Positions 3,115-28,914 are shown, numbered from the stretch's first letter. The stretch: 32,000 bases of DNA from Pirellula staleyi DSM 6068 (GCA_000025185.1 CP001848.1:4470001-4502000), one strand, 5' to 3'. Translations and numbers: made by a program. The notes: generated by a model from the sequence alone, not told the origin.

Positions 3115-3123
3115 TACGCTGGC

Positions 3124-3762: not shown

Positions 3763-3770
3763 CGGAGAGA

Positions 3771-6833: not shown

Positions 6834-6861
6834 TATCTTCTAACATCCGAAAGCTTTAAGC

Positions 6862-8772: not shown

Positions 8773-8788
8773 CGACCCGCGATCGAGG

Positions 8789-9589: not shown

Positions 9590-9591
9590 CG

Positions 9592-10269
9592 ATGCTGGAT
9601 TGGTTGACCACCGCTGTTGAAAACGATCCCCAAATGTCTCTCCCTGTGATCAGCGCGAGGCTGATACTCGGATTGATCTGTGGCATGCTGGTGGCGGGAA
9701 GCTATCGCTTAACGCAAGGACCACTCTCCACGCGTTCGATGTCGCTGATGGCGACGCTCGTGCTCCTCACGATTTTGATTGCCATGGTTGCACTCGCCGT
9801 TGGTAACAGTGCGGCACGCGCTTTTAGTTTGGTTGGCGCGCTTTCGATTGTTCGTTTTCGCACGGTTGTCGAAGATACGCGCGACACAGCGTTCGTGATC
9901 TTTGCCGTTGCGGTGGGAATGGCGGCAGGGGCGGGCTACTACCAAGTGCCACTGGTGGGAATACCCCTGACAGCCGTTGTGGCCTATCTGTTTCGCCCGA
10001 CCAGCAAAGTGATCGCCACGGAATTTCTCGAGCGCACGCTGGAAATTCGCATCGGCATCGGCCGTGATCTAGAGACGACATTACAGCCTCTCTTTCAAAG
10101 CCACTTGCAGCACTGGAAACTCACCTCGATTGCCACCGCCAAGCAAGGAGCGGCGATCCAAGTGGTATATCACGTCAAACTGCGATCAGAAAAATCTGCC
10201 ATCGCGATTGTGACTGAACTCAATCGCGTGGAAGGAGTTCAGGATATTCAGCTGCACAGTCCCAGTTAA
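9592..10269 (+). CDS. DUF4956-like polytopic membrane protein
   Basis: The ATG at 9592 has a strong RBS (AAGGAG at 9581-9586) and lies 2 nt after the VTC stop. The protein has several TM helices and the characteristic FSLVGALSIVRFRTVVEDTRDTAFVIFAVAVGMAAGAG block. The C-terminus looks soluble. Confidence 0.75.
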   Translation: MLDWLTTAVENDPQMSLPVISARLILGLICGMLVAGSYRLTQGPLSTRSMSLMATLVLLTILIAMVALAVGNSAARAFSLVGALSIVRFRTVVEDTRDTAFVIFAVAVGMAAGAGYYQVPLVGIPLTAVVAYLFRPTSKVIATEFLERTLEIRIGIGRDLETTLQPLFQSHLQHWKLTSIATAKQGAAIQVVYHVKLRSEKSAIAIVTELNRVEGVQDIQLHSPS

Positions 10270-13190: not shown

Positions 13191-16100
13191 ATGACAATCT
13201 CGCGCAAAGAGTTGGCTCGTCAAAAGAAGCGTCAAAAAGAATTGCGAGCTGCCATATTGGCTCGGCGCGAGCGCCGGTCGCTCATCGAGCAGCTCGAGCC
13301 GCGTCAAATGATGGCGGCTGAAGTCAGCAACTTTAGGCTTTGGTATGACTCAGGTTATTCGTCGACCGACAAGGTCTCGAGCGATACTCGCCTGGCTGGT
13401 GCCCTCGCTTTTGGTAGCGGAAATTCGGGGCGCATCGACTTTGATCATAACGGCGATAGCAATGTCGATGGGACTATTTCGGTCGTTAACTCAGGTGGCA
13501 GCTTTAAGTATGAGCCGCGCGACAATGGTCTCAGCGAGTCGTTTACCGGTGCGCTCGATCTGAAGTATCGCGCGGTGGAACTCGACAGCTACGGCGGTGT
13601 GCTCAATACCGGCAGCTGGACCAGTTTTCCGATCACCGTCGAATCGCGCCTCGGCGCCGATCTGCAGAACCTGCATCTCGTGAGCGATACTGGGAGCTCT
13701 TCGACCGACAAAGTGACGAGCGATTTGCGACTCGCAGGCGCTGTAACGTGGGATGGCTACGGTGGTTTTGCGCAGGTGGAGTTCGATCTGCATAACGACG
13801 GCACAGCCGATGGCTATGCCGGGCTCTGGTGGTCGGGCGAAAGTTTTGAAGTGAACCTGCGGAACATGGGGCTCTCGTCGTCCTATAGCGGCGCGCTTCC
13901 GCTGAAGTATCGCATCGTGGAATTCGATAGCTACAGCAGTCCACTCTATACCTCGGACTGGCAAAGCTTTGCGATCACCGTGGAGACTCCGCGGCTGTAT
14001 GGCAACGTCAATTCGCTGCAGCTGGTGAGCGATACCGGAAGTTCCTCGACCGATAAGGTGACCAGTGATCCGCGCGTGAGCGGCTCGATTTCTTGGGATG
14101 GCTACGGCGGCTCCGTGCAGATCGAGTTCGACCACAACAACGACGGCACTTACGACGGCTATGCCGGAACGTACTACAGCGGCGGCAGCTTCACCTACGA
14201 CCCGCGTAACTGGGGATTGTCGTCGATTTATAGCGGCGAATTGCCGCTGCGCTATCGCATTGTCGAGCGCGATGACTACTACAACACGCTCTTCACCGGA
14301 TCGTGGCAGGATTTCACGATCACCTTGGAGCCGCAGCGCATCAACGCAGTGATGAGCGGCCTCGCGCTGGTGAGCGATACCGGCACCAGCAGCACCGACA
14401 AGCTCACGACCGATCCGCGCCTCACCGGCAACGTCAGCTGGGATGGCTACGGCGGCTACGTCGACGTCCAGTTCGATCACAACAACGACAACTACTTCGA
14501 TGGCTATGCGGGCGTCTGGTCGTCGGGAAGTTCGTTCAACTACGATCCGCGCAGCTGGGGACTTTCGAGCGAGCACGCGGGCGTGGTGCCGATGCGCTAT
14601 CGGTTCGTCGAATACAACGAGAACTACACGGCGATCTACACCAGCAGCTGGACCAGTTTCGAGTACACGATGCTAGCGCCGCGGCTCAACGCCACGCTCA
14701 GCGGTCTGGCGCTCGTGAGTGATACCGGCACCAGCAGCACCGACAAAATTACCAGCGATCCGCGCGTGTCGGGAAGTGTGACTTGGGATGGCTATGGTGG
14801 CTGGGTCGATGTGCAGTTCGATCACAATTCCGACGGCTCTTACGATGGCTACGCGGGTATTTGGTCGTCGGGAGGCTCATTCACCTACGATCCACGCAAC
14901 TTTGGACTTTCGAGCAACTACTCGGGCGAATTGCCGCTGAAATATCGAACCGTCGAGTACTCTAGCGGCGGCTCTACTTTGTTCACTAGCAACTGGGCCA
15001 ACTTCCCCATTACCATCGAACAGCCGCGGCTGAATGCGACGCTCACCGGGCCGCAACTAGTGGTAGATGATGGAGCCTCTTCCTCCGATCGTGTGACCAC
15101 CGACCCGCGCGTGTCGGGAAGCGTCACTTGGGATGGCTACGGCGGCTCGGTGCAACTGCAGTTCGACCACGATGCCAACGGCTCGCTCGATGGCTATGCC
15201 GGAATTTACAGCTCGGGGAATTCGTTTACCTACGATCCGCGCAGCTTTGGGCTTTCGTCGAGCTACTCGGGAAGCTTGCCGCTGAAGTATCGCGTCGTCG
15301 AAATGGACTCCTACGGCGGAACGCTCCACACCAGCAACTGGCAAGATTTTGCGATCACGATTTCGGGAGCCGAGCCATCGGCCACCCTCGCGAACTTGCA
15401 TCTGGTGAGCGACACCGGCACCAGCAGTACCGACAAAATCACCAGCGATCCTCGTCTCGCTGGTAACGTGAACTGGGACGGCTACGGTGGCTATGTGACG
15501 GTCGAGTTCGACCACACTGGCAACGGTTCCGTCGATGGATCAACGACGCTCTACATGAGTGGCGATGCTTTTCAGTACGATCCTCGCAGTAGCGACCCAA
15601 GCCTTTCAACCTACGCAGGCACGCTCCCGCTGAAGTATCGCTTGGTCGAAAACACCTCTGGCGGAAGCACCATTGTCGGTTCGTGGCAAACGTTTACCTA
15701 CACTCTTGTGGGTCAGTCACCCGCTCCCGAAATCACCGTCGTCGATTCGAGCATCGCGCCGATAGCCGACGAAATCGGCTCCTATTCCTTTGGGACGACT
15801 GTCGCCGGTTCCTCGATCGTGCGAACCTTCACGATCGTGAATCAGGGGACCGGCACACTCACGCTCGATGCCAATAGCCTTTCATTGCCGAGCGGCTTTG
15901 CGCTCGTTTCGACGTTCGACAGCACCGTCGATCCCGATGGCGGGACCACGACGTTCAGCGTCCGGCTCGAGGCGACTACGCCCGGGGTTTACAGCGGCAC
16001 ACTCTCGTTTACCAGCAACGATGCCGATGAGAGCCCTTACAACTTCACCATCACAGGACACGTTCTGTCGGCTGAAGCTGAAATCGATGTCGAGCGCGCA

Positions 16101-19100
16101 GATGGCTCGAATCTTGCCGATGGAACTGGGACGCTCAGCTTTGGTGCGACAGCCACCGGTACTGCTGTTTCGCGCACCATCACGATTCGCAACATTGGCT
16201 ACAGCACCCTGGTGCTCGACGACGAGTCACTCTCGCTGCCGAGTGGCTATTCGCTCGTCAGTGGATTTGCCACCTCGGTTTCTCCAGGTGAATCGACCTA
16301 CCTCACCGTTCAGCTCGATGCGTCGTCCGCAGGCACCTATGGCGGACAGCTTTCGTTCACCACCAACGACACGAGCGAAGGGATCTTCAACTTCCAGCTC
16401 ACTGGCACCGTCGAAGCCCCCACTCCCGAAATCGTGGTTCGGCTGGCGAGTGAATCCAATCGCTCGCTCTACAGCGGATCGGATAGTGTCGACTTCTCCT
16501 GGGCGCAGGTCGGTGGCGCCAATGCACGCACCTTGCTGATCGAAAACACCGGGACCGGCACTCTCACGCTCGATAGCGCGTCGCTTGTTCTTCCGGTTGG
16601 ATTTCGCGTCGCCACCCCGTTTGCCGCCACGGTAGCCCCCGGCGCAAGCACTTCGCTGATTGTGGAATTTGCCCCCGGATCGGAAGGTTTTCATTCCGGA
16701 GAACTTTCGTTTGTGACAAACGATTCCGACGAAGGACTCTTTCGGTTCACACTCCACGGCGAAGGGTATGGGAGCGGTACACCGAGCGGCACGCAGCTGA
16801 TCGTTGGGCTTCGCAACGACACCGGGATTTCATCGAGCGACAAAGTCACTTCCGACTACCGGATTCAGGGAGAAGTGACGGGACTAGCTGCTGGCGAATC
16901 GGCTCGCATTGCGATCGATCTCGGGACCGATGGGATCGCGGAAACGGAAATCACCGTCACGGCCGCCAGCCCCGAGTTTGCCTTCGATCCTACGACCATC
17001 GCCAGTTCGTTTGCAGCGACACTCGGCGCTAAACTGCTCCGCTTCAAAGTGACCTATTTCGACGACCAGGACAACGAGATCGGCACCGGAAATTGGCAAA
17101 CGTTCAGCTATGCCTTGGAAGCGATTCCGGTCCAGATCACCCCGACGCTCCTCACCGATACTGGCCCGATTTACAACGACTCGATCACCTACCTTCCGAC
17201 CCTCTCCATTGCCGTGCAGAAGCATAGTGGCAGTGGCAACATCCGCTTGGAGTTTGATCACGACGCTGATGGCGATGTCGATGGCTCGGCAGCTGTTCCC
17301 TATTCCTACACGGTGCTGCAGTATGATCCGCGCGTGAGCGATTCGTCCTTTGCAGCATTGCGGGGTGAAATCCCGCTCCGCTATCGCGCGGTGATGATCG
17401 ATGGCAATGGTGAGCCGATCGCTCTGGGGGCCTGGAACAACTTCACCATCGAGCAGACAGGGGACACCCGTGCCGAGGGTTTGCTGCTATCGGAACTGGG
17501 GCTCAGTTTGGACTCCGGTGTTTCAAGCACCGATCGCATTACCTCGTCACCCGTGATTTATTTTGTCGCGAGTGGTGAGTTGGAAACGGGGAGCGGCGCG
17601 GTCGACTTCGATTTTGAAGGGAACGGTTCGGTCGACACGACGCAGCTGGTCGATCAACTCGACCAAGAATACTTATTCGACCCACGTACGCTTGGTGGAT
17701 CGGAGTATGAGACCAACGGCGCGAAAGAAATCTTTTTCCGCGTGCGTAAGCTCAATGAACTCGGTCTTACGGAGGCCACAGGGGACTGGCAGCCGTTTCG
17801 CTTCACCTTCGAGTCAGCTCCTACCTCGACAGCTTCGCTCCAAAACGTGGCGCTGCTGCACGACACCGGCGCAAGCAGCACCGATCGTGTGACGAGCGAT
17901 GGGACGATCAAGGGAATTGTGCAAAGTGGCGAGGCCTACTCAAATTTTGCGTTTGTCGAAGTCGACTGGACCGGTAATGGGACGGTGGATGATGTCATCC
18001 CAGCGGTTCATGGTCTCGCAGGATGGGAGTTCCGCGCCACTCCACGCTCACTGAGCTACGGCACCTACGATACGCTGCTGCGAGTGCGTGAATGGAGCGA
18101 TCAGTTTGGCCAGTATCGCTATTCCGCCTGGAGCGAGTTCAGTTTTGAGTTCGTCGCGATGAGTTCGCCTGCCATCGCGAGCCTGAAACTCGAAGGGATC
18201 GATGCCAGCATCAGCAGTTATGTGACTGCCCATGAAACAACGCTGCTGGGAGAAGTCGCAACACCGGTTGACCGCTCCTACATCATCTACCTCGATGCCA
18301 ACGGCGATGAGATCGCCGAAGCAACGGCCTACAGCGATGGGCAAGGGAAGTTCTCCATCGAAACACCCATCGCCGCGGCTGGAAATGTCTCCGTGCGGCT
18401 GCGCACCGCTGTTTACGATCCGATCCTGCAATCCGAGATCCTCGGACCTTGGCGATCGTTTGCCTTCAGTTACGAATCGAAAGCGCTCGCCAATGTTACC
18501 GAGCTTTCGCTGCAAACGGATACCGGCACCTCGGCGACCGATGGCATTACCAAAGACCCGACCGTGAAAGGAAAAGTGACTCCGCCGACCACAGCCACCG
18601 GCATCTCGGTGAGTGGCGTGCTGGTCGAGTTTGATGAAGATGGGGATGGCGATGCGGAGGGATTCACCAGCACCTCGACCACCGGAGAGTTCAGCTATCG
18701 TCCACTCACACTCTTGCCTGGCACCGTGACAATCCGCGCTCGATCGCGCGCATTCGACGAAAATCTACGCACCAATATCTACGGCACATGGAAAGAGTTC
18801 ACGTTCACGCTCGAGGCCACAACTTTTGAGACCGGTACGGTAAGTCTATCGCTTGCGAAACCGAGCGCGACGAACTCTGCCCAAACCACCGATCCGGCGA
18901 TCAAAGGAACGACGGTGATTGGCAGTGGTCGGCACGCGGTAGTCGAATTCGATCACAACGGCGATGGAACCCCCGAAGGTTCGGTCGCTACCGACACAAC
19001 GCATCAGTTCACCTATGTTCCTATCGGAATGGGGGTAGGGAGCCACACGATTCGTGCTCGGGTGCGCGAATGGAATCCGGTTGCGCGACAGCTTGTGATC

Positions 19101-22100
19101 GGCGACTGGATCGAAATGAACTACACCGTTGTCACCACAACGAATCAAACACCCACAGTCACCAGCCTCGCGCTGGCCAGTGATTCGGGGAGTTCTGCCA
19201 GCGATCTCATCACCGGCAATTCGCTACTCACCGGCACGATCAACAACCCCGATGGTGCGGAAGCAGGATTGCCGGTCGAGATCGATGTGAATAGCGACGG
19301 CCTAGGGGACACGATTGTGTTTGCCGATAGCCTGGGACAGTTCAGCTATCAAGTTGAAGCGATCCCCTACGGCGCGAATACCGTTCAGGCCCGCGCGATC
19401 GAATGGGACGAGCCTTCGGGTCAATATCTGATTAGCAGTTGGCAAAGCTTATCGTTCACCTATGTCGCCCCCAGTGGCGAAGCCGCCTATGTAAGCGAGC
19501 TCACCACCGTTACACCTCCCTACTATGGCCAAGTGCTCGATCCGATTCTTACCGGGCAAGTGATCAACGATGGATCGCTGAAAGACATTGTCGTCGAACT
19601 CGATTTCAACGGCGATAACACCATCGATGTCCGGACACTCACCGATAGTAATGGGCACTTTGAATATCGCCCGGTCGGACTTGCGCCAGGCAACTATGCA
19701 ATTCGGGCCCGGGCTCGCGAACTCGATACCATCACGGGCCAACTCACCACAAGCGGATGGACCACTCTCTGGTTCGAGCTTCTCGCTTCGAACAACCAGG
19801 TCGCCACACTTTCGCCACTAGCGCTTGTGGAAGATACCGGAACCGTAGGGGATGGCAAATCGGCGAATCCCTCGCTGAAGGGGACGGTCACGAACGATGG
19901 CTTGTATAGTGGCCTCGTCGTGCAAATCGATCACAACGGCGACGACATTGCCGATGGTGTTGCGGGAGTCGATAGCACAGGGAACTTCACCTACACTCCG
20001 CACGGTTTGGCCTATGGCACCTACACATTCCGAGCGCGGGTGAAGGAGCTGAATCAGCTCGGCACGCCGATGTATAGCAGCTGGCAAACCCTTGCGCTCG
20101 ACTACCAACCCGAGGCATATCAAGGGGTCAAGATCACCACACTCAATCTGGCGAGTGACACCGGTAATTCAGCCACCGATGGAGCGACGTCCAACCCATC
20201 GCTGACTGGCTCGATTAGTGGAACGACCAGTCCGATCGTGATCCGCTTTGATCACAACGGAGACGAAGTTACCGACGGCACCGCGACGACCGATGCCCAA
20301 GGGAACTTCAGCTACTCGCCAAGTGGGCTCACCGAAGGACTGGTTACGATCCGCGCTGCTGTCGAAGGAACGACAATCGCCAGTGGGCTGCGCTGGACCA
20401 CCAAGACCTTTGTCTACTCCACAACTCCCGATGGCGAAACAGCGCAAGGACTGGTCCATACCCACCTGACTTACACCGCCGCTTGGCAGCGAGCAGGAGA
20501 CGACTATAACGCCGCGATCAGCGCCGCCAACTCACTCTACACGTCGATCCGCGACCGGGCCGCTCTGACCTACGATGCCTCGGTCGCCAGTTCCACCCTC
20601 GCACGCGACGCCGCGCTCGCGCAGGCTCAAGAGGCATACAGCCTCGCCACTGCTGCCGCCGAAAGCACCTATGCCTCGCAGATGGCCGATATCCAAGGCC
20701 AATTCATGCTCGACCTAGCGGCCTATGGCGGGGACACAACGACGTTTCAGCTGCGCGAGTTTGCCTGGCCCACGTCGCCAAGCTCGATGGGACTCGAAAT
20801 TCCGAGCGATGCGTCGCAGCCCACAGCGCCGCAAATGATCAGCGAGACGAGCACCTACTACGACTGGTCGAGCGACACTGCTTATCAAGGGGCCATCGCC
20901 GCTGCGAACAACAGCTACCAGACCGAAAAACTCGAAGCCGAGAACATCTACTCGGCAGCGAAAAAGAGTGTCGACGACACCTATAACTCAGCCGTTAGTG
21001 GAGCCAATCGAACTCACTCGGAAGAGGTCGCAGCGGCCAAGAAAGCTTACGACGACGCGCTGCTGGTGCCGATCACGAATGCGGTCGACATGGTCGCCGC
21101 GACGAGTGACTACAGCAGCGCCATCGCCAATGCCACCGCGCAGCGCGATCGCGTGTTGGCCCGCATCGATACGGGCGATATCTACCAGCAGCGCAGCGCT
21201 CTCGAGAACTGGCGCGATGCCCAGATGTACGCTTGCTCGACCTGGGAGTACGAAGCTCGTATCGCGCGCGAGCGCGACATCTGGGAGGAATATCACCACC
21301 GCTATGCCGACATCGAAAAAATCGTTGCCGACCGGATGGCCAAAGCCGATTACGACTACGGCGTCGCTGTCGAGAATGCCGCCGTCGCCTTCAAGCACAA
21401 AGAAATCGACCGTGATCAGCAAGTCGAGCAGCGAAAAATCAACGCGGCTGCGGTTCGCGATAAAGCAATCAATGCCGCCGATGCCAAACGCGATAAAGCG
21501 ATTGCCACCGCGCAGTTTGAAAAGACCAAGGCACTCGCTGTGGCAGCGAAAGCCTTTGATTCAGCTGTCGAGAAAGCGCGGCTCGATTCGGTGAAAGAAC
21601 AATCCGATGCGCGCACCTCTCCGCTTGCGAGTTGGGCCGATGGGCTCGGGACACGCTGGACCACTTACTACAAAGAGATCGTTGGGCACGATGTCGATCA
21701 TGTGAGCAGCATCGTCCCCAAAGCGGAGGAGCGTTACGAAAGCGATCTTGCCACTGCCAAGACCGAGATCGAGAAGATCGCCGAAGAAAAGAAGAAACTC
21801 GCCCACGAAAAGAGTGATCTGACGCTGACGAAAAAGAATGCCGAAGTCGATTCCGACAAGGTGTTTAGTACTGCTGAGAATGTCGCAGAAATCACGCGTA
21901 AAAAGGCGAACGAAACTGCCTTTAGCGAGTTCAAAAAGAAAGATTTGGAGATCACGCGAGATTTCAAAATCGAGGATGCGACGAACCATCAGAGCTACAC
22001 GAAGGCGGCTGCCACACTCGACCGCAGTGTCGATCGGGATGCCCCGGTTTACGTCTGGAGTTCGAGCCACCAGTCGAACATTCTGAATCAAGCGCGCATC

Positions 22101-25100
22101 AACGACTACTACGAGTATTTCGTAGGCACGGGCTCGGCGGGATCGGAATCGGGCGGAGTCTACGCACTCCTCTACAGTCGGGCTCAATCGCTCGAAGCCA
22201 ACGATCTGACACGTGCCACCGCGCGAAACAATGCCTGGCACACATATCAAACAGCCGTTTATGGCCACGCGCGAACTCGCGCCGAGGCAACAGCAACGGC
22301 AGCCGAAGTGCGCGACAAGTCAAAAGCCGATGCTGCTTTCACCTTCACGACGACCTACGCAGAAAAGTACTCGGCTTATCTGAAGTCGACGTCGGAAGCC
22401 TCGAAAACAGCTGCTGACGAGGAGACCGCAAGTGACACTACGTACAACGCCCATCTGAATGAGGCTGAGGTCCAGCGTAATGATAGCGAGGCGGAAACCA
22501 CCAACGACTATCGGACCGGACTAGCTGAAGATCACAAGGATCAGGTCGGATCGTGGGGGACAGCACTCGACTCGGCCTGGGGAACGCTACAAAAAACGCT
22601 CGCCGATACCAACTTCGATCAGATCGTTGGACTAGGCGCAGCACTGGTCACCAACACCAGCACACTGGGTGGATTTGCGCTCACTCACGCCGATGAAATC
22701 GGCTCGAGCCTGCAGCAGCTTGTCGAGGGGATTGTCGCTGCCGACGACACCGAAACGCAGGCCCATTCCGATGCGATTGTCGCCTATGCCACGAAGGTTG
22801 CGACCGAGCGAAAGGCCTATGCGTACAAGCTTGCAGCGGCCAATAAAGAGCACGATTTTGCGGTGGCAGAAAAAGATGAGGCCTATCGTGTCGGAGTCTC
22901 CGAACGTCAGCGGGTGTACGAAAATGCGGTCGCTGCTCTCAAGTTCGATGCCGAAGATTCTCACCAAACCACGCCGAATGTCATTTACGTAGGCTCGGCG
23001 TCGTCGATCGATTTCCGCCTAGCAGCGCTCCATATGATCTTCTCGGCCGACGATAGCCCCATCACCGGCTATGGTATTCGGATCGGGCAAGCTGACGTCG
23101 ACTATCTCCGCGCGCTGGCAGCACTACAGAAGACTGAACTCGCTAGCCAAACGAGCAACTACACTCTCTCGGAAAACTATCACACACAAAAAACAGCCAT
23201 CGGCGATACCTGGCAAGCCGCCATGCGCTCGCAGCATGAAGGTTACGAAAAAGCCAAATTCGCCGCAGAACGAACACGCGCCGAAGGGGATGTCAACGAT
23301 CATCAAACGTGGGTCCTCGGGATTCAGAACGACCATGTCACGCTCGCCGAAGAAGCCCAATCGGCAGCCAACACTTTGGCCGATGCGCTCGCCGAAGCGA
23401 CCACCAGTCTCGCCACCGATCAGGCCGATGCGGCCCGCGCCTTCTCCGAAGAGGTTGCCGCTGCTGACAAGTCGTACACCGACGACACAACCAGTGCCGA
23501 TGTCGAGTACTCCAACGATGCTCTCGGCGCCGACAACAGCTACTCGCTCGGCTCCATCACTTCGAGCAATGCCTACGAAGAGGCGATCGTAGGGGCTCGC
23601 GGCAACTACGAAGAAACCCTGCACCAGCAGCACCTCGCGAAGCTGCAATCAGCGACAGTTCCAGCGGGGGCGATCACCAAGCTGAACATGTATCGCATCG
23701 GAGTCGCTGAGGCGAACCTCCAGTGGTCGCAAGATCTGTGGGCCGCCCGCGAGCAGCAGCAAGCGAGTGCCTCGATGCGCAACCTCGCCTCGATCCAAGG
23801 AGGAACATCATTCCTGGGCGGCAGCGGCGGTCATTCCATCACCGGTTCCTCGTCTGCGAGCGTGACTCAAACATCGAGCATTGGCGAAGCCTACCTCGCG
23901 CACACGACCGGCACGAGCAGCGCAGTCAAGTCGCTCAGTGACGATACAGCGGATGCCATTCGCGATGTGGTGGTCGGTGTTCGCACCGCCGAGTCGAGCG
24001 ATGCTGCACGGCAAGTGAAGGCCGAGAAAACCTACGACGTCGATCATGCCATCGCCGCGCGCACGTTCCATGAATCGACCGAAGCCGCTCTCCTCGCGTG
24101 GGCCAGTGATGTACTCGATGCACGTGGTGCTTACTGGGACGAGTTTCAGAGCGAAATGTACTACGACCTTCCGGCCGAGGAAGAGGCTTGGGAGGATGCC
24201 TATGGCGGGAATCTATCGCGCGCCGAAGTCCGCGATGCCGCCATTGAAGTGGCTGACGACCAGTACGATCTCGCGATCAAAACGGCGCGTAAGGATTTCG
24301 CGCTAGAAGTCGGCGACGCCCAGATCGATCGGGCACACACCGTCACACAGTCCGCCGCGACACGGGAAGACGAAGCCGGCCAGGCGGTGATCAATGGTCA
24401 GTCGAGCCTCAATTCGGCCGAAACCAGCTACATCGGCACCACCAACGGGCTCAACAATGCGAGCGCCTCAGGCTACGGCCTGGCCGACAAGATCTACGAC
24501 GAGGCCACCGCCAAGATCAACGAGTTTCTCACCGAACTCAACGGCAACTCTAGCATCGCCTATGCCACCGTCCTTGCGAATGCTCGTACCAGCCGGGCGG
24601 TTGCATTAGCGACTGCTGAGGCCGATTACCACATCGCGATGGCCACCACAACCGCCACTCGCGAGAACGCTCTCTATCAATCGATGGCCACCGCCAATCC
24701 GGCCGATCCACTCCTCACCTATCACCAATTCCTCGCCTCCCAATCCACCGCTTATGTCAGCTGGCTCTCTGGCATGAAGCCCGCCTACGCCTCCTACATC
24801 GAATCGATGAGCGAGGCGGTCAGCGCCGAATCGATTGCCTTTGCGGAAGCTCAAGCGGCAGTCGATCGCGCTCGTGCCCAGTCGCAGCGCGAACGTGCAT
24901 TTTCAGCTGCCGAGCGCTGGATGAATAGTGAAATCGCCGAGACTTCCGCTTATGGCGATTACCGCACCGCCGAAGCGACTTCGCGTCATGCTCGCGATCT
25001 CGCGCTCCCAGGCTACGAACGCACCTTGCAGATGGCATACCAGGCGCAAGACGAGTCGCAGCTGGTGGCCCACACCACCGCCGAGCGCGACTACTGGTTC

Positions 25101-28100
25101 ACCATCGTCGGGGACGACGACTACAACTACTACACGTATTCCGCTGCTGCCAACTCGGCCCTCACCGCAGCTCGTGCCGCCGCCAACACCGGCTGGGCCG
25201 AGGACTACTCCACCGCCGACCTCGCCTGGACCACCAGTGTCACCACGGCCGACACCACCTATCGCGTCGCCCTGGAGAATCACAACTACGGCTACGAACT
25301 CGGCGTCGAACAGCGCGGCGAAGTTCGGACCGTTGCCGAGGCCCAGTCCGACCACGCGAAAGCGATCGCCGACAGTGCCGCTGAACGAACATTCGATCTC
25401 GCACTCACCGCAGCCTCCAATGCCCGGCGCACTGCCGAGTTCACCGCCGCTGCTGATTTCCAAGGAGCCGACTACCAGGCTCAGGCCACCGCCATCGCCA
25501 GCATCAGCACCGCAATGAACCTCCCTTGGCTCACGTTTGAAGCGGATCTCGCAGGGGTGAAACTGAGCTGGTGGACCAGCACCGGCCGCACCGAGTGGCT
25601 CGACGCTGGCATCGATCTGAACGAAGCCGACACCACCTACGCCATCGCTGCCGCCGATGTCAACGCTGCGCATCGCGTCACCGTCGCCGGTGCCGATCGC
25701 GACCTGGCGATCTCCGAAGCCGCGCGTCAGCGCATTCGCCGCACGGGAGAACTGGCAGCCGACCGTGATTTTGCAATCACCTTCGCGGGAGTCGACCAGG
25801 CCTATCAACTGGAACTGGCCCAAACGCGTAACTACTACCGGAATGCTCAAGCAGCACTGACCGAAGACTACGCCGACGAAGCGGCTGCATCGCAGTACTT
25901 CTTCCTCAGCAGCACCCCTGAGTTCGCGGCAATCGAGTCCCAAAAATCAGCCCGATCCACCGCTGCCAACGATCGCTGGCTCGTCGGCATCACCGCCGGT
26001 GAAGGGGCCCAAATGCAAGCCCACGCCGCCGCCCTCCTCAGCTACGCCACCTCCTGGCGCAACGACAACCTCGCTTACGAAAACACATTCCTCACGAGCA
26101 TCCGCGATCGTGACCTTGCTCTTACTACGCACTCCAATATCCAAAAACTTTCCTACGCTGAACTATACCGCGACTACCAAATCGATTCTGCGACTACCTT
26201 CGCCATTACCATCGACTCCTTTGTCTCCACAAACACCACACCTTGGTCCATTCGAGTCGCTGAGGCAGGAGATGCACAATCGGATCGGACAGAAGGTGTT
26301 GCAAACGCGATATTCGAGTTTAAAGAAATTGAATTCTTAGAAGCACATGATCTCGCAATATCCAAGATTCTTTCGGCGTTCGAGCACAATCGTGATTCCC
26401 GACTCTCTGGGATCGAAGAGTCGATGGTAGAGGACATTGCTCGAGCCCTCCGCGACAATAACCTTGGTCAGGTGCTCACAAATTGGTCTACCAATGACAG
26501 TTCTAACCTGCGCACCTTCGATTCTACTACTGAAACTACTCCTAGCGCTGAAGGCCCCGCACCCTCGCGAACTACCCGTCCGGGAACAGGAACAAATTCG
26601 AAGAAGCCGAACGAAACAACGCCCGCAAAAGCAGAGCCTCTGTCGAGTAACAATGTCGCATCTGATGGTTCCGATTACAGATACTCGCCTGCAACCAGTC
26701 AAGAATCAATTAAAGACGATGTTTCTGATGAATACACTCCCCATCCGCCATTACCCCGTTTAGTTCTCGATCCTCGAATTGGCGAGTATGTCCTAGCTGA
26801 CCAGGTTAGTAGCTCTTCTGACTACTATGATGTCCCCTCGCAATCTCGCATTAACGCATCAAATCGATACAATCCATCGCCTGATTACATAGAGGTTCAG
26901 AGTCAGCTGTCGGCTCGCTATTACGCCGATGACAACAAGAAACAAGGATATGTCGGGTTCGTCTTCGACACACGACCTGAATTGAAAGAAATGGGAGTGC
27001 TAAATGTTTCTATCGAATCATTTGAACGATTAAACTATCTCTTTGCAGGCGATAGCAACACTAGCATAACGTCAATTGAACTAGCCATTGCTGCTATGGG
27101 ATTGGCTGGCTCTGAATGGAAGCGGTCGACTGAGAACTTTAAAATTGGAGAAAACGTCTATGAAATAATTGTTCTCGAAAATGAAGCAACGGAGGACACA
27201 TGGTATGCTGTTCCCGAGGTTGTGTACACATTTAAGGATGGATATGTTCCCGAGAGCCGTGGGTTGAGTGATCCATTTACGGCGGCTAAGCCCTACCTAG
27301 TTTTTTTGGCAATCCCATATCCCGGACTGGCTAAACAGGTTTACTTATGGTCCCCCAAAGAAGCAGAGCCGCTTGGGCCAAAGCTAGTGGGAGTTACATT
27401 TTATTCTTCGCGAAGTAACGTAGAATACGCCCTCTCAGGCACAAAACGTATTGAGTTGTTGAACAAACTTGCAATAAGCTATGGAGTCGGTGTAGGTGCC
27501 TTGAATATTCAGTCTGTATTCAAGTCAGCGACTGCATCCGTCAAGTCGGTCTCTAGTGTGTCATCGATCGCATCAGAGACGACAGGAGCTCTTGACAATC
27601 TCGCTCAGACAGTCACTGTTGCCGACAATGCGACACCTTCCTCCGCTGATATCTTCGCTGAAATCGCAAAATCAGGCGACAATGCCTCCCAGTCCACCGT
27701 CGACACGTTCACCGATTTAGCCAAGAGTCTTGACGAGGCACCACCTCTAGATCAATCTAATGCTCCAAACAGAACTCCTTGGGACACAATTGACCACTTC
27801 CGGTCGCACAAGCAAGGAATGGCTGAACTAGGGGATGCTATTCCTGTTAAGGGGGACAAGCTAGGAACTGTTGCCTTTGTCGAGATAGAAGGCAGCAAGG
27901 TATTTGGGGTAAATTCAACAGCGTTAGTAGACGATGCAGACAAAGCCTTGGGACGTATGTGGCGAGATCGCCTTGGCTTCAACTCCGGACAAGCTCAAGC
28001 ATTGTTTCATGGGGAGGCCCATTCGCTCATGCGTGCCTATGAGAAGTTTAGTGGTAAGCTCCCTAAAGATCTGACCCTCTATGTCGATCGACTGACGTGT

Positions 28101-28223
28101 GGGCCATGTCAGGGGGCATTACCCGATCTCATGAAGGCAATGGGGATTGAGCGTCTTAAGATTGTGACAAAGAGTGGCAGGGTTGGTGAAATCTCTGGAG
28201 GAGTGTTCAGATGGTTGGAGTAG
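13191..28223 (+). CDS. Giant (5,010 aa) modular surface/secreted polymorphic-toxin-like protein with C-terminal nucleic-acid deaminase-like domain
   Basis: A single uninterrupted ORF of 15,033 nt with an AAGGA RBS. The domain order is given in the sub-features below. The codon and GC pattern matches host genes until about 26,250. Every other long ORF in this interval is an antisense or alternate-frame artefact. Confidence 0.95.
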   Translation: MTISRKELARQKKRQKELRAAILARRERRSLIEQLEPRQMMAAEVSNFRLWYDSGYSSTDKVSSDTRLAGALAFGSGNSGRIDFDHNGDSNVDGTISVVNSGGSFKYEPRDNGLSESFTGALDLKYRAVELDSYGGVLNTGSWTSFPITVESRLGADLQNLHLVSDTGSSSTDKVTSDLRLAGAVTWDGYGGFAQVEFDLHNDGTADGYAGLWWSGESFEVNLRNMGLSSSYSGALPLKYRIVEFDSYSSPLYTSDWQSFAITVETPRLYGNVNSLQLVSDTGSSSTDKVTSDPRVSGSISWDGYGGSVQIEFDHNNDGTYDGYAGTYYSGGSFTYDPRNWGLSSIYSGELPLRYRIVERDDYYNTLFTGSWQDFTITLEPQRINAVMSGLALVSDTGTSSTDKLTTDPRLTGNVSWDGYGGYVDVQFDHNNDNYFDGYAGVWSSGSSFNYDPRSWGLSSEHAGVVPMRYRFVEYNENYTAIYTSSWTSFEYTMLAPRLNATLSGLALVSDTGTSSTDKITSDPRVSGSVTWDGYGGWVDVQFDHNSDGSYDGYAGIWSSGGSFTYDPRNFGLSSNYSGELPLKYRTVEYSSGGSTLFTSNWANFPITIEQPRLNATLTGPQLVVDDGASSSDRVTTDPRVSGSVTWDGYGGSVQLQFDHDANGSLDGYAGIYSSGNSFTYDPRSFGLSSSYSGSLPLKYRVVEMDSYGGTLHTSNWQDFAITISGAEPSATLANLHLVSDTGTSSTDKITSDPRLAGNVNWDGYGGYVTVEFDHTGNGSVDGSTTLYMSGDAFQYDPRSSDPSLSTYAGTLPLKYRLVENTSGGSTIVGSWQTFTYTLVGQSPAPEITVVDSSIAPIADEIGSYSFGTTVAGSSIVRTFTIVNQGTGTLTLDANSLSLPSGFALVSTFDSTVDPDGGTTTFSVRLEATTPGVYSGTLSFTSNDADESPYNFTITGHVLSAEAEIDVERADGSNLADGTGTLSFGATATGTAVSRTITIRNIGYSTLVLDDESLSLPSGYSLVSGFATSVSPGESTYLTVQLDASSAGTYGGQLSFTTNDTSEGIFNFQLTGTVEAPTPEIVVRLASESNRSLYSGSDSVDFSWAQVGGANARTLLIENTGTGTLTLDSASLVLPVGFRVATPFAATVAPGASTSLIVEFAPGSEGFHSGELSFVTNDSDEGLFRFTLHGEGYGSGTPSGTQLIVGLRNDTGISSSDKVTSDYRIQGEVTGLAAGESARIAIDLGTDGIAETEITVTAASPEFAFDPTTIASSFAATLGAKLLRFKVTYFDDQDNEIGTGNWQTFSYALEAIPVQITPTLLTDTGPIYNDSITYLPTLSIAVQKHSGSGNIRLEFDHDADGDVDGSAAVPYSYTVLQYDPRVSDSSFAALRGEIPLRYRAVMIDGNGEPIALGAWNNFTIEQTGDTRAEGLLLSELGLSLDSGVSSTDRITSSPVIYFVASGELETGSGAVDFDFEGNGSVDTTQLVDQLDQEYLFDPRTLGGSEYETNGAKEIFFRVRKLNELGLTEATGDWQPFRFTFESAPTSTASLQNVALLHDTGASSTDRVTSDGTIKGIVQSGEAYSNFAFVEVDWTGNGTVDDVIPAVHGLAGWEFRATPRSLSYGTYDTLLRVREWSDQFGQYRYSAWSEFSFEFVAMSSPAIASLKLEGIDASISSYVTAHETTLLGEVATPVDRSYIIYLDANGDEIAEATAYSDGQGKFSIETPIAAAGNVSVRLRTAVYDPILQSEILGPWRSFAFSYESKALANVTELSLQTDTGTSATDGITKDPTVKGKVTPPTTATGISVSGVLVEFDEDGDGDAEGFTSTSTTGEFSYRPLTLLPGTVTIRARSRAFDENLRTNIYGTWKEFTFTLEATTFETGTVSLSLAKPSATNSAQTTDPAIKGTTVIGSGRHAVVEFDHNGDGTPEGSVATDTTHQFTYVPIGMGVGSHTIRARVREWNPVARQLVIGDWIEMNYTVVTTTNQTPTVTSLALASDSGSSASDLITGNSLLTGTINNPDGAEAGLPVEIDVNSDGLGDTIVFADSLGQFSYQVEAIPYGANTVQARAIEWDEPSGQYLISSWQSLSFTYVAPSGEAAYVSELTTVTPPYYGQVLDPILTGQVINDGSLKDIVVELDFNGDNTIDVRTLTDSNGHFEYRPVGLAPGNYAIRARARELDTITGQLTTSGWTTLWFELLASNNQVATLSPLALVEDTGTVGDGKSANPSLKGTVTNDGLYSGLVVQIDHNGDDIADGVAGVDSTGNFTYTPHGLAYGTYTFRARVKELNQLGTPMYSSWQTLALDYQPEAYQGVKITTLNLASDTGNSATDGATSNPSLTGSISGTTSPIVIRFDHNGDEVTDGTATTDAQGNFSYSPSGLTEGLVTIRAAVEGTTIASGLRWTTKTFVYSTTPDGETAQGLVHTHLTYTAAWQRAGDDYNAAISAANSLYTSIRDRAALTYDASVASSTLARDAALAQAQEAYSLATAAAESTYASQMADIQGQFMLDLAAYGGDTTTFQLREFAWPTSPSSMGLEIPSDASQPTAPQMISETSTYYDWSSDTAYQGAIAAANNSYQTEKLEAENIYSAAKKSVDDTYNSAVSGANRTHSEEVAAAKKAYDDALLVPITNAVDMVAATSDYSSAIANATAQRDRVLARIDTGDIYQQRSALENWRDAQMYACSTWEYEARIARERDIWEEYHHRYADIEKIVADRMAKADYDYGVAVENAAVAFKHKEIDRDQQVEQRKINAAAVRDKAINAADAKRDKAIATAQFEKTKALAVAAKAFDSAVEKARLDSVKEQSDARTSPLASWADGLGTRWTTYYKEIVGHDVDHVSSIVPKAEERYESDLATAKTEIEKIAEEKKKLAHEKSDLTLTKKNAEVDSDKVFSTAENVAEITRKKANETAFSEFKKKDLEITRDFKIEDATNHQSYTKAAATLDRSVDRDAPVYVWSSSHQSNILNQARINDYYEYFVGTGSAGSESGGVYALLYSRAQSLEANDLTRATARNNAWHTYQTAVYGHARTRAEATATAAEVRDKSKADAAFTFTTTYAEKYSAYLKSTSEASKTAADEETASDTTYNAHLNEAEVQRNDSEAETTNDYRTGLAEDHKDQVGSWGTALDSAWGTLQKTLADTNFDQIVGLGAALVTNTSTLGGFALTHADEIGSSLQQLVEGIVAADDTETQAHSDAIVAYATKVATERKAYAYKLAAANKEHDFAVAEKDEAYRVGVSERQRVYENAVAALKFDAEDSHQTTPNVIYVGSASSIDFRLAALHMIFSADDSPITGYGIRIGQADVDYLRALAALQKTELASQTSNYTLSENYHTQKTAIGDTWQAAMRSQHEGYEKAKFAAERTRAEGDVNDHQTWVLGIQNDHVTLAEEAQSAANTLADALAEATTSLATDQADAARAFSEEVAAADKSYTDDTTSADVEYSNDALGADNSYSLGSITSSNAYEEAIVGARGNYEETLHQQHLAKLQSATVPAGAITKLNMYRIGVAEANLQWSQDLWAAREQQQASASMRNLASIQGGTSFLGGSGGHSITGSSSASVTQTSSIGEAYLAHTTGTSSAVKSLSDDTADAIRDVVVGVRTAESSDAARQVKAEKTYDVDHAIAARTFHESTEAALLAWASDVLDARGAYWDEFQSEMYYDLPAEEEAWEDAYGGNLSRAEVRDAAIEVADDQYDLAIKTARKDFALEVGDAQIDRAHTVTQSAATREDEAGQAVINGQSSLNSAETSYIGTTNGLNNASASGYGLADKIYDEATAKINEFLTELNGNSSIAYATVLANARTSRAVALATAEADYHIAMATTTATRENALYQSMATANPADPLLTYHQFLASQSTAYVSWLSGMKPAYASYIESMSEAVSAESIAFAEAQAAVDRARAQSQRERAFSAAERWMNSEIAETSAYGDYRTAEATSRHARDLALPGYERTLQMAYQAQDESQLVAHTTAERDYWFTIVGDDDYNYYTYSAAANSALTAARAAANTGWAEDYSTADLAWTTSVTTADTTYRVALENHNYGYELGVEQRGEVRTVAEAQSDHAKAIADSAAERTFDLALTAASNARRTAEFTAAADFQGADYQAQATAIASISTAMNLPWLTFEADLAGVKLSWWTSTGRTEWLDAGIDLNEADTTYAIAAADVNAAHRVTVAGADRDLAISEAARQRIRRTGELAADRDFAITFAGVDQAYQLELAQTRNYYRNAQAALTEDYADEAAASQYFFLSSTPEFAAIESQKSARSTAANDRWLVGITAGEGAQMQAHAAALLSYATSWRNDNLAYENTFLTSIRDRDLALTTHSNIQKLSYAELYRDYQIDSATTFAITIDSFVSTNTTPWSIRVAEAGDAQSDRTEGVANAIFEFKEIEFLEAHDLAISKILSAFEHNRDSRLSGIEESMVEDIARALRDNNLGQVLTNWSTNDSSNLRTFDSTTETTPSAEGPAPSRTTRPGTGTNSKKPNETTPAKAEPLSSNNVASDGSDYRYSPATSQESIKDDVSDEYTPHPPLPRLVLDPRIGEYVLADQVSSSSDYYDVPSQSRINASNRYNPSPDYIEVQSQLSARYYADDNKKQGYVGFVFDTRPELKEMGVLNVSIESFERLNYLFAGDSNTSITSIELAIAAMGLAGSEWKRSTENFKIGENVYEIIVLENEATEDTWYAVPEVVYTFKDGYVPESRGLSDPFTAAKPYLVFLAIPYPGLAKQVYLWSPKEAEPLGPKLVGVTFYSSRSNVEYALSGTKRIELLNKLAISYGVGVGALNIQSVFKSATASVKSVSSVSSIASETTGALDNLAQTVTVADNATPSSADIFAEIAKSGDNASQSTVDTFTDLAKSLDEAPPLDQSNAPNRTPWDTIDHFRSHKQGMAELGDAIPVKGDKLGTVAFVEIEGSKVFGVNSTALVDDADKALGRMWRDRLGFNSGQAQALFHGEAHSLMRAYEKFSGKLPKDLTLYVDRLTCGPCQGALPDLMKAMGIERLKIVTKSGRVGEISGGVFRWLE
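13320..15740 (+). repeat. Seven tandem Ig-like (adhesin-type 'DTGxSxxDxxTxD') repeats; units 2-7 are exactly 345 bp / 115 aa apart
   Basis: Unit starts are at 13320, 13671, 14016, 14361, 14706, 15051 and 15396. Consensus: L.LVSDTG(S/T)SSTDK(I/V)TSDPR(V/L)(S/A)G.V.WDGYGG.V.V(E/Q)FDHN.DG..DGYAG...SG.SF.YDPR..GLSS.YSG.LPLKYR.VE. Stretches such as ctggtgagcgataccggcaccagcagcaccgacaa recur at the DNA level. Confidence 0.9.
15726..16773 (+). repeat. Three tandem ~116-aa choice-of-anchor-D / ASH-like beta-sandwich modules
   Basis: Each unit reads PEI.V....(FG)....G....RT..I.N.G.G.L.LD..SLSLPSGF.LVS.F...V.PG.......V.L.....G.Y.G.LSF.(T/S)ND..E..(Y/F)NF...G. An example is SFGTTVAGSSIVRTFTIVNQGTGTLTLDANSLSLPSGFALVS...LSFTSNDADESPYNFTITG. 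Confidence 0.7.
16790..20412 (+). repeat. About 11 divergent Ig-like modules of the same adhesin type
   Basis: Module-start motifs recur: LRNDTGISSSDKVTSD, LLTDTGPIYNDSITY, LSLDSGVSSTDRITSS, LLHDTGASSTDRVTSD, LQTDTGTSATDGITKD, LASDSGSSASDLITGN, LVEDTGTVGDGKSANPSLKG and LASDTGNSATDGATSNPSLTG. Each is followed by (E/I)(F/I)D.(N/D)GDG..(D/E) and ...R(A/V)R. The module count is approximate. Confidence 0.7.
20440..26450 (+). repeat. About 2,000-aa Ala/Thr/Asp/Glu-rich, Cys-poor region, presumably alpha-helical, with an 11-residue (33-nt) aromatic periodicity
   Basis: Hand-checked registers have an aromatic residue at i, i+11, i+22, i+44 and i+55. In DDYNAAISAANSLYTSIRDRAALTYDAS...QEAYSLATAAAESTY the Tyr residues fall at 0, 11, 22, 44 and 55. 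In NSYQTEKLEAENIYSAAKKSVDDTYNS...KKAY they fall at 0, 11, 22 and 44. In KSYTDDTTSADVEYSNDALGADNSYSLGSITSSNAYEEAIVGARGNY they fall at 0, 11, 22, 33 and 44. GWAEDYSTADLAWTTSVTTADTTYRVALENHNYGY gives W0, W11, Y22 and Y33. KVFSTAE...AFSEFKKKDLEITRDFKIEDATNHQSY gives F0, F22, F33 and Y44. The boundaries are approximate. Confidence 0.75.
27800..28220 (+). other. C-terminal deaminase-like toxin domain (HxE...CxxC; DddA/SCP1.201-like by motif and element order)
   Basis: Sequence: KLGTVAFVEIEGSKVFGVNS...AQALFHGEAHSLMRAYEKFSGKLPKDLTLYVDRLTCGPCQGALPDLMKAMGIERLKIVTKSGRVGEISGGVFRWLE. H4940-G-E4942 lies at nt 28008-28016 and C4970-G-P-C4973 at nt 28098-28109, with 27 residues between the Glu and the first Cys. 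The inferred order strand-strand-(HxE helix)-strand-(CxxC helix)-strand-strand fits the cytidine-deaminase fold. Confidence 0.7.
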
Positions 28224-28675
28224 ATCAAGTGAATCGCTTTCATAGCACATTCAGATCCTTCGGAAACCAAGGGGTCGATCCAATCGAGTGGGAACGACAC
28301 TTCTTAAATTACCACGTTTCCGAATGGTTGTCCGAAGGCGATGGAGTCCTCCAGTTCTTTTCCCATGATGGCAAGCGGTACTCGCTGGTTCTTGTTCACG
28401 TGCCGAGTCGTGGGTTTGTTCTTCAATACGATTGCCGAGATTTGTCCTTGCAGAAGACTGTCTCTTGCAAGTACGCAGTGTCAGATCAATCGCAGTTGTC
28501 ATGTTTTGAAGAGGTGGCAGACGGCCTTATTTATCCGACTGGTTGTATTTTGCCCCCTTCAACAGCTTGGGTTGCCGTGAAGGGATTCCTAATCCATCCG
28601 ACTCTACCCTCAAATGATGTTGAGTGGATCGCAGATCAAGACATTCCTTGGCCAGAGTCGCAACGAGAATCATGA
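28211..28675 (+). CDS. Putative cognate immunity protein for the C-terminal deaminase toxin (family unassigned)
   Basis: 154-aa ORF whose ATG at 28211 overlaps the giant gene's last codons and TAG (28221-28223) by 13 nt, which suggests translational coupling. An alternative GTG start is at 28229. The protein is small, appears cytoplasmic, and has no signal peptide or TM helix. Trp residues lie near the C-terminus (DVEWIADQDIPWPES). It shares the reduced GC of the toxin end. The function is inferred from position only. Confidence 0.65.
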   Translation: MVGVDQVNRFHSTFRSFGNQGVDPIEWERHFLNYHVSEWLSEGDGVLQFFSHDGKRYSLVLVHVPSRGFVLQYDCRDLSLQKTVSCKYAVSDQSQLSCFEEVADGLIYPTGCILPPSTAWVAVKGFLIHPTLPSNDVEWIADQDIPWPESQRES

Positions 28676-28914
28676 AATCGTTCGCCCGTGCGTGAGTGTG
28701 ATTCACCGTCACGATGAAAAAGAAACAGGAGCATTGCCATCACGGGACAGGGGGTGACCACCTTGCCTGCCAGGGGAATCGCCTGGAATTGTTTGATTCT
28801 TATCTTTGTGGCAGCGGTTGCTTGGCGATGGCAAGGTAGTTTATCTGCCCGGCAGAGAATGGCGGCGATGGCTTGAACAAGTGATCCATCGCTTGACCCT
28901 ATTGGTTCTGAATT

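Follow-up and report, generated by a model that had tools for sequence, protein, structure and literature searches.

The window analysed here is a stretch of 32,000 nucleotides (nt) from Pirellula staleyi DSM 6068 (GCA_000025185.1 CP001848.1:4470001-4502000), in which positions are counted from the first letter and all features lie on the plus strand unless stated otherwise. The list of open reading frames (ORFs) and their translations show a single, uninterrupted ORF of 5,010 codons at 13191-28223, encoding a polymorphic toxin of 5,010 amino acids (aa). The domain map of this ORF, drawn from Pfam and NCBIfam scans, places an array of Ig-like domains at aa ~46-2410 (13326-20420; ~2,350 residues), with matches to Big_13, choice-of-anchor D and ASH/HYDIN-like domains, and a MafB19-like deaminase toxin domain at the C-terminus (aa 4867-5010; 27789-28220; PF14437, E 1.6e-28). 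Between the two lies a module of 11-residue (hendecad) helical repeats, aa 2416-4400 (20436-26390), which is delimited by periodicity statistics, AlphaFold2 helices and collinear homologues and is the subject of this work. An initial annotation of the window had marked nt 20440-26450, which correspond in frame to aa 2417-4420, as a possible rod of about 180 consecutive hendecads set between adhesin modules and a toxin. Both the coordinates and the position were accurate, with the Ig-like array on the 5' side of the module and the deaminase on the 3' side.

The periodicity was assessed by autocorrelation of the Phe, Trp and Tyr positions over aa 2417-4420, compared with composition-preserving shuffles. 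The signal is strongest at lag 11 (z = 10.1), followed by lag 22 (z = 7.7) and lag 33 (z = 5.6); lags 44 (z = 4.2), 55 and 66 are also significant with decaying strength, and the coherence of the signal fades over ~6 units. Pairs of aromatics at i and i+11 number 61, against 23.6 ± 4.2 in the shuffles. Alanine and the large hydrophobic residues follow the same 11-residue period, while the flanks of the same protein are flat at lag 11 (z = 0.8 for aa 1-2416 and z = 0.4 for aa 4421-5010). The recurrence of aromatics at i+11 that had been read by eye is therefore real, and the autocorrelation and Fourier check that had been proposed for aa ~2420-4420 gives a significant 11-residue peak. The short-window spectrum has peaks at 3.6-3.7 residues (z 7.4-8.1) and at 10.5-11 residues but is flat at the heptad values of 3.5 (z = -0.4) and 7 (z = -1.2), from which it follows that the pattern is an 11/3 hendecad rather than a heptad. 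This agrees, handedness aside, with the earlier reading of the region as helical and built on an 11-residue unit.

When the units are anchored on the aromatic residue the consensus is A(-4) x x [A/T](-1) [Y>F>W>H](0) x x A(+3) [V/I/L](+4), with alanine at -4 in 43% of units and tyrosine as the most frequent marker (55%), which matches the A-x-x-x-(Y)-x-x-A context described in the initial annotation. The region is rich in alanine (18.8%). It is also nearly devoid of proline (1.0%) and lacks cysteine (0.0%), as had been stated, though glycine, which had been placed in the same group, is only reduced (4.3%). The maximum Kyte-Doolittle mean over 19 residues is 1.29, no hydrophobic segment is present and the net charge of the module is -124. 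A transmembrane or pore-forming segment is ruled out by this hydropathy scan.

Although the period is clear, it does not run through the module in one register. Sliding Fourier windows of 220 residues have modest power at period 11 and a phase that drifts, with weak coherence over long windows, and this drift rules out a single long register across the region. Linking aromatics at i+11 or i+22 into chains of three or more gave 24 chains of 3-8 units each, in many registers, which cover 56% of the region (7.2 ± 2.3 chains and 16% in the shuffles). The ~180 consecutive hendecads first proposed thus resolve into short runs with drifting phase and changing register.

The predicted structure is also one of many helices. 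AlphaFold2 was run on two tiles, aa 3800-4400 with an alignment of 16 sequences and aa 2401-3600 with 13 sequences, and the results were read as confidence values and secondary structure. The first tile is essentially all helix, with a mean predicted local distance difference test score (pLDDT) of 91.8 and a predicted template-modelling score (pTM) of 0.73. Its helices, 3841-3974, 3980-4109, 4112-4226, 4243-4347 and 4351-4399, have 134, 130, 115, 105 and 49 residues and are joined mostly by turns of 2-5 residues, with one loop of ~16 residues containing short helical turns (aa 4227-4242). The second tile is less confident (pLDDT 74.9, pTM 0.55) and has helices of up to 160 residues: 2416-2459, 2465-2511, 2563-2625, 2634-2682 and 2687-2806 in its N-terminal part, then 2822-2960, 2983-3126, 3129-3269, 3328-3487, 3494-3536 and 3551-3599. 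Confidence is low in a Gly-rich turn at ~2945-2991, a Gly/Ser-rich stretch at 3537-3557 and two larger features. One of these is a Pro-rich, non-helical loop inside the module (aa 2512-2558; 20724-20864) with pLDDT below 50 and no secondary structure, whose Pro-rich stretch is present in the homologues too. The other is an insert at aa 3262-3331 (22974-23183), with pLDDT ~40-57 and poor conservation, where the homologue alignments break (~aa 3252-3355); this may be a loop specific to the lineage or a small domain that was inserted.

In total about 17 helices are predicted, of 44-160 residues, and most are of 105-160 residues, which is equivalent to 16-24 nm at 0.15 nm per residue. The single helix of 2,000 residues and ~300 nm that had been envisaged is accordingly replaced by helices joined mostly by turns of 2-5 residues, and what had been offered as a caveat, that hairpin packing would shorten the rod, becomes the main point, since the long helices are predicted to fold back on one another. 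Plotted on an 11/3 helical wheel, the aromatics fall on a single stripe in 7 of the 17 helices (p <= 0.0055). All six aromatics of helix 2563-2625 share one register (p < 0.0005), as do 10 of the 17 in helix 3328-3487 (p = 0.0005), and in helix 4243-4347 the aromatic concentration reaches R = 0.89; on a 7/2 wheel the concentration is generally lower. Taken with the predicted boundaries, this suggests that several helices hold one register from end to end, that registers differ between helices and that the changes mostly fall between them.

Comparison of the module with itself revealed a further level of repetition. In a profile-profile comparison of two family alignments, aa 3845-4248 aligned with aa 2813-3250 at a probability of 98.5% (E 3.5e-15), and the module was cut into five pieces, bounded by secondary structure, the AlphaFold2 tile and hhalign, that were compared locally with hhalign. 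Three of these are super-repeat units: U1 (aa 2810-3275; 21618-23015; helices 2822-2960, 2983-3126 and 3129-3269), U2 (aa 3320-3840; 23148-24710), which contains the longest predicted helix (3328-3487; 160 aa, ~24 nm), and U3 (aa 3836-4240; 24696-25910; helices 3841-3974, 3980-4109 and 4112-4226). The N-terminal piece, X0 (aa 2416-2806; 20436-21608), is a partial unit of five helices with the cleanest Tyr stripes, and the C-terminal piece, X4 (aa 4240-4400; 25908-26390), is a partial unit made up of helices 4243-4347 and 4351-4399. U1 aligns with U3 at E 8.8e-15 over 376 columns and with U2 at E 4.2e-8 over 417 columns, and U2 aligns with U3 at E 9.1e-9 over 360 columns. X4 aligns to an internal hairpin of both U1 (E 3.4e-7, 116 columns) and U3 (E 1.5e-6, 114 columns), while the match of X0 (taken as aa 2416-2810) to U1 is weak (probability 79%, E 1.7e-5, 229 columns). 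Reversed profiles, which keep both composition and periodicity, gave E values of only 0.03-0.86 (0.78-0.86 for U1 against U3), so the similarity between units is not an artefact of the periodicity. The module is therefore built of three full homologous units with partial units at both ends, and on the predicted helix map the hierarchy runs from 11 residues, through ~10-14 hendecads per helix, to three helices per unit of ~400-520 aa. No tandem repeat was found in the helical region at the DNA level, which means that the internal duplications are old and that a recent repeat expansion can be rejected.

Relatives of the module are rare. An exhaustive HMMER search of 1.84 billion representative proteins with aa 3021-4220 as query returned 32 relatives at E <= 1e-3, of which 18 were at E <= 1e-10 and two at E <= 1e-30. 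Word-indexed homologue searches gave two proteins only each time, P0001 and P0002 among them, as the prefilter of 8,000 candidates was swamped by Ala-rich sequences. Amongst the contigs of GTDB species-representative genomes a single locus carries a relative, in a metagenome-assembled genome (MAG) of the Pirellulaceae (locus L001); the organism of the window was not among the matches. All 32 relatives, and P0001 and P0002 as well, are collinear with particular stretches of the module, one of them (P0004) spanning aa 1915-3250 and 3360-4363, and this collinearity shows that the module is a position-specific conserved domain assembly and not a set of interchangeable repeats. Homology to the relatives stops at ~aa 4365-4385.

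A protein of 917 aa on a 1.1-Mb ENA contig (P0035) is Ala/Thr-rich, helical and poor in aromatics, and matches the profile over ~470 residues with an E value of 1e-23 locally and 6.6e-14 database-wide. It may be a more distant, aromatic-poor branch of the helical-module family.

The periodicity itself is conserved. At the aromatic columns of the window the homologues are aromatic in 48% of cases, compared with 5.9% elsewhere, and these columns persist even though identity is only 22-30%. Column frequencies taken from the homologues only give z = 9.6 at lag 11, and the lag-11 signal is present in P0002 and P0001, each taken alone. The most conserved hairpin of the family lies at aa 4073-4130 (25407-25580) and reads AANARRTAE ... 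ADY ... NLPW ... WW in alignment A3; conservation is 73-100% in its aromatic columns and at least 90% at A4075, P4112, W4113 and W4127, and A4086 does not vary. These results bear on the view that the periodicity is merely a compositional or low-complexity artefact of an Ala-rich sequence. That view can point to the 18.8% alanine and to the low-complexity candidates that swamped the word-indexed searches. Against it, the composition-preserving shuffles never came near the observed signal, there is no DNA tandem repeat, the aromatic columns are conserved at such low identity and reversing the profiles abolishes the internal similarity, so that we give the artefact practically no credence.

Conservation also argues against a second view, raised in the initial annotation, that the module consists of lipid- or surface-binding 3-11 amphipathic helices of the apolipoprotein, LEA, perilipin or synuclein type, which would be disordered until they met a membrane. 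The 11-residue period and the signature of 3.67 residues per turn are indeed common to these classes, in which Lys is expected beside the apolar face. In the module, however, the apolar face is made of Ala and aromatics with no Lys enrichment noted in the unit consensus, the net charge is strongly negative with no hydrophobic segment, conservation holds position by position over 2,000 residues, and the model is a confident one of packed long helices with high pTM. A membrane helix of this kind is thus highly unlikely.

The initial annotation had recognised no named domain family, and this stands. The helical module has no match in Pfam, NCBIfam or PHROGs (E <= 0.1 for PHROGs). Searched against the PDB, once as a single sequence and twice as a profile, the module gave nothing significant, and the profile of alignment A3 gave nothing at E <= 10. 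With alignment A4 the only weak PDB matches were to ATP synthase subunit b (8dbs_X, E 0.21; 1l2p_A, E 7), which reflect the shared 11/3 pattern and nothing more. Foldseek searches with both models against the PDB, and with model 1 against BFVD, returned generic long-helix matches with template-modelling (TM) scores mostly of 0.1-0.2; those in the PDB included SMC, F-BAR, chemoreceptor, PrgA and UmbC1, and the single BFVD match below 1e-3 was an uncharacterised iridovirus protein (TM 0.13). There was thus no confident match to a known globular repeat family in Pfam, NCBIfam, PHROGs, the PDB or by Foldseek. No paper describing the module was found in the literature searched, the coverage of which was incomplete, such that this absence is not proof.

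Two of the structural neighbours deserve closer comparison. Siphophage tape-measure proteins are very long helical proteins that carry Trp/Phe markers at a fixed 11-residue spacing (PMC3271669), as the initial annotation had correctly stated, and several of them are among the weak BFVD matches. The module shares the length and the aromatic spacing, though the latter is a shared feature and not evidence of homology, and it could in principle be a phage-derived ruler of this type. However, no PHROGs family falls on the helical region at E <= 0.1, the Pfam family TMP_2 appears only at E 0.28 and outside that region, and the tape-measure matches in BFVD have TM scores of 0.1-0.2 and are mixed with SMC, Rad50 and myosin. 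Nor do the surroundings fit, since there are no phage genes or tail cluster in the window and the fusion partners of the module are Ig-like arrays and a polymorphic toxin. The marker is mostly Tyr and not Trp/Phe, and the tight antiparallel hairpins of the predicted bundle would suit an extended tape poorly. A tape-measure origin therefore seems extremely improbable.

The other neighbour is UmbC, the Streptomyces umbrella toxin (PDB 8w20). In this actinobacterial system, which has a twin-arginine translocation (TAT) signal, ALF repeats of 43-44 aa, arranged as two groups of four, form a ring, two coiled-coil domains form the stalk, and UmbA and UmbB act as spokes (PMC11062931). ALF repeats are a known alpha-helical central module of polymorphic toxins (PMC3482391), including those with deaminase toxins (PMC3482391, PMC3239186), and the ALF unit is close to 4 x 11 residues (PMC11062931). 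Like UmbC, the module is the all-alpha centre of a secreted polymorphic toxin with swappable C-terminal toxins, deaminases included, and like the UmbC stalk it has long antiparallel helices, which on our side are predicted. UmbC1 (8w20_A) was also the nearest structural neighbour in the PDB, being the first Foldseek match for model 1 and the fourth for model 2. On these grounds the module might be a divergent ALF-repeat relative serving as a docking platform for accessory adaptor and lectin proteins, which would make up receptor-binding spokes. The UmbC1 matches are not significant, however (E 0.067 and TM 0.14 for model 1; E 0.17 and TM 0.08 for model 2), no ring-plus-stalk fold was found, and the sequence and profile searches of the PDB, in which UmbC1 is included and through which the comparison with ALF was made, do not retrieve it. 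There is no super-period of 43-44 aa, lag 44 being weaker than lags 11-33. The unit here is 11 residues, the predicted helices of 105-160 aa are unlike the 43-44 aa repeats of the UmbC ring, the super-repeat spans ~400-520 aa and the host belongs to the planctomycetes and not to the actinobacteria. Genes resembling UmbB or UmbA, the latter with trypsin-like and lectin domains, were not found among the ORFs of the window or the called genes of locus L002, although orphan loci elsewhere in the genome are possible. We consider membership of this group quite unlikely. By analogy, the module may work like an ALF-type helical toxin stalk while lying outside the ALF/UmbC group by the features tested, as an analogue and not a member.

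The attachment of different toxins to one constant region is a signature of polymorphic toxins (PMC3482391). The protein in the window is a large multidomain one with a recognisable toxin domain at its extreme C-terminus, and the match to PF14437 (MafB19-deam) is complete, with the last 144 residues aligned to profile positions 1-142 of 142 and both the H-x-E and the C-x-x-C motif present. The best PDB matches to this domain are weak (cytosine deaminases, E ~0.03), with no close solved structure. The collinear homologues share the helical module and carry differing C-terminal toxins, namely Tox-REase-5, AHH, Ntox46 and PT-HINT with another C-terminus; the last is in P0001, and Big_13 is found as well in the relatives, as are a dockerin and Ig-like domains in P0002. 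Between the module and the deaminase lie a Pro/Thr/Ser-rich linker (aa ~4440-4530; 26508-26780), read from the translation and without a family match in Pfam, and an uncharacterised pre-toxin region (aa ~4531-4866, ~335 residues; 26781-27788) with no significant match in Pfam, NCBIfam or PHROGs; together they make up ~450 residues without a family match. The composition of the linker suggests that it is disordered, and the pre-toxin region may be a novel pre-toxin or translocation domain. Directly after the toxin is an ORF of 154 aa (28211-28675) that overlaps the stop-codon end of the toxin gene by 13 nt. It had no family match in the Pfam scan of the window's ORFs and its position marks it as a candidate for the immunity protein of the deaminase, perhaps from a new family.

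Two observations point to the exchange of such C-terminal parts. At L001 (186-11613 in the Pirellulaceae MAG) a 267-aa ORF comes after an N-terminally truncated toxin gene with the helical module, and after that comes a second toxin ORF, P0001, the N-terminus of which is a copy of the helical tail of the upstream gene and leads into PT-HINT and a different toxin. This arrangement resembles, by analogy, the orphan toxin cassettes of CdiA and Rhs loci. In the window, a low-GC block of ~2.7 kb (26050-28800, not assigned to a strand; composition profile at 300-nt resolution) has a GC content of ~0.42-0.52, compared with 0.61-0.67 upstream and 0.58-0.64 downstream. The content drops to ~0.48 at nt 26050-26100, near aa 4295 in the penultimate helix, and recovers near nt 28800, on the 3' side of the 154-aa ORF, so that the block extends from the last helices through the linker, pre-toxin region and MafB19 deaminase to the candidate immunity gene. 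This is consistent with a swapped, probably horizontally acquired toxin and immunity cassette with its junction in the terminal helices.

Taken together, we think it rather probable that the module is the constant central module, ~2,000 residues of hendecad alpha-helix, of a rare planctomycete polymorphic-toxin family, and we infer for it the roles of a stalk or scaffold and of a site of cassette exchange. In such a molecule the 11/3 repeat would bring together on one face positions a and h, both Ala, with d (Ala/Thr), e (Tyr/Trp/Phe) and i (Val/Ile/Leu). This apolar face (-4, -1, 0, +3, +4) would cover ~130 degrees of the wheel and run parallel to the helix axis without winding. From coiled-coil principles, a straight apolar stripe should allow very long, nearly straight helices (105-160 residues, 16-24 nm) to pack without supercoiling. 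The large aromatics would pack against Ala of neighbouring helices, and the helices would fold back on each other via turns of 2-5 residues, three of them making one unit of ~400-520 aa. The whole would form a rigid, acidic, soluble extracellular stalk or scaffold distal to the ~2,350-residue Ig-like array, with the linker, the pre-toxin region and the deaminase toxin carried at its far end, and its last helices would supply the conserved DNA homology for the exchange of toxin and immunity cassettes. A role as spacer or delivery element, as suggested in the initial annotation, is still the best functional guess, whereas the membrane-interacting helix that it also proposed is unlikely and the ruler in the sense of a tape-measure protein is not supported.

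A different role for the same helices would be as a translocation or envelope-spanning device, with ~20-nm hairpins that, like the long coiled coils of colicins such as colicin Ia or like alpha-helical pore-forming toxins, would bridge or cross the envelope of the target cell and carry the toxin to its inner membrane. The predicted helices, at 16-24 nm, are comparable in length with the thickness of a Gram-negative envelope, and the module lies directly 5' of the toxin, many different toxins having it as their conserved partner. No hydrophobic or amphipathic insertion segment is present, the maximum hydropathy being low and the net charge strongly negative; colicins and pore-forming toxins were not matched by sequence or structure in the PDB and Foldseek searches, and 2,000 residues far exceed the span of an envelope. 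We therefore regard it as unlikely.

Several points weigh against the stalk or scaffold reading. The N-terminal extracellular-type motif of planctomycetes (PF07595, Planc_extracel; aa 28-45, LEPRQMMAAE; 13272-13325), the secretion motif of the protein, is matched at E 0.0026 with 17.8 bits, below the Pfam cutoff of 25.5 bits; the relative P0002 has an N-terminus of the same kind. The first half of the module was modelled from 13 sequences and includes several low-confidence stretches, the two tiles leave out aa 3601-3799, and some long helices have weak single-stripe statistics (p 0.04-0.28). The function as a stalk is argued by analogy. The shift in GC content could mark a foreign origin of the cassette without the helices having been the substrate of recombination. 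Lastly, the predicted packing leaves two lengths for the module, of ~90-110 nm if the units lie end to end or ~20-24 nm if they lie side by side.

With regard to the length, end-to-end stacking is possible because each unit has an odd number of antiparallel helices, so that the chain would pass from one end of the unit to the opposite one. Three-helix units of ~20 nm each might then stack into a rigid hendecad rod of ~90-110 nm, a 'giant spectrin-like' arrangement, not described before, that we put forward tentatively, as a possibility with the odds somewhat against it. The spectrin repeat has ~106 aa and is heptad-based. As in spectrin, three antiparallel helices per unit would be concatenated in one chain as a rod-like spacer, but this is an analogy only: the unit here is four to five times longer and hendecad-based, there is no sequence or structural match and the end-to-end stacking is a proposal.

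Also among the closest known systems is a structural class, as distinct from a homologous family, that of the right-handed or straight hendecad coiled coils, with which the module has in common an apolar 11-residue period, the signature of 3.67 residues per turn and the lack of a heptad signal. In the right-handed coiled coil (RHCC) of tetrabrachion and the dimerisation domain of the ATP synthase b-subunit, as here, an 11/3 pattern sets small residues and one large residue on a straight stripe. Those coiled coils are short, parallel and homo-oligomeric, unlike the single chain of the module with its predicted antiparallel helices of more than 100 residues each, repeated many times. In its place within the toxin, and presumably in its role, the module is comparable to the FHA repeats of CdiA and to RHS/YD repeats, which likewise form a large constant central region between an export or adhesion part and a variable toxin (PMC3482391), and the orphan-cassette-like layout of L001 is common to those systems. 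It differs from these beta-helical and beta-cage structures in being entirely alpha-helical, and is unrelated to them in sequence.

Amongst the other genes of the window are the planctomycete markers PSCyt1, PSCyt2 and PSD1, which flank the locus, in addition to an extracytoplasmic function (ECF) sigma factor, a Ser/Thr kinase, CotH, VTC, DUF4956 and transferases or methyltransferases, and the domain scan found no phage genes or secretion-system genes among the ORFs. On the 5' side of the toxin gene is an apparent operon (4551-10269) encoding a Ser/Thr protein kinase, a CotH kinase-like protein, a VTC-domain protein and DUF4956. Ahead of this operon, which is probably unrelated to the toxin, stands an ECF-type sigma factor whose N-terminal extension is long. 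Within the toxin gene, the Ig-like array contains a DNA tandem repeat of 345 bp (14355-15292; 2.7 copies, 73% match) that encodes recently duplicated Ig-like modules of ~115 aa with the motif SDTGTSSTDK...DPR...FDHN.DG.

The central modules known for polymorphic toxins are beta-helical (FHA), beta-cage (RHS), tail-fibre or ALF-helical, and the module described here would be a second, unrelated all-helical solution, so far confined to a handful of planctomycete (Pirellulaceae-like) sequences. As a natural hendecad design, with single-chain helices of 105-160 residues in three-helix units, it bears on coiled-coil theory and on the design of long rigid rods. The MafB19-clade deaminase and its putative immunity partner may also be of interest in prospecting for base editors or nucleic-acid deaminases. 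Were the units to stack end to end, the helices of the rod would be among the longest in any single-chain bundle, and the ~90-110 nm rod, set on the Ig-like array, would present the toxin hundreds of nanometres from the planctomycete surface and would add a structural class to the filaments that deliver toxins by contact. More generally, the module would seem to mark an apparatus for toxin delivery, as yet uncharacterised, in a phylum whose envelope is unusual and in which interbacterial antagonism has barely been studied.

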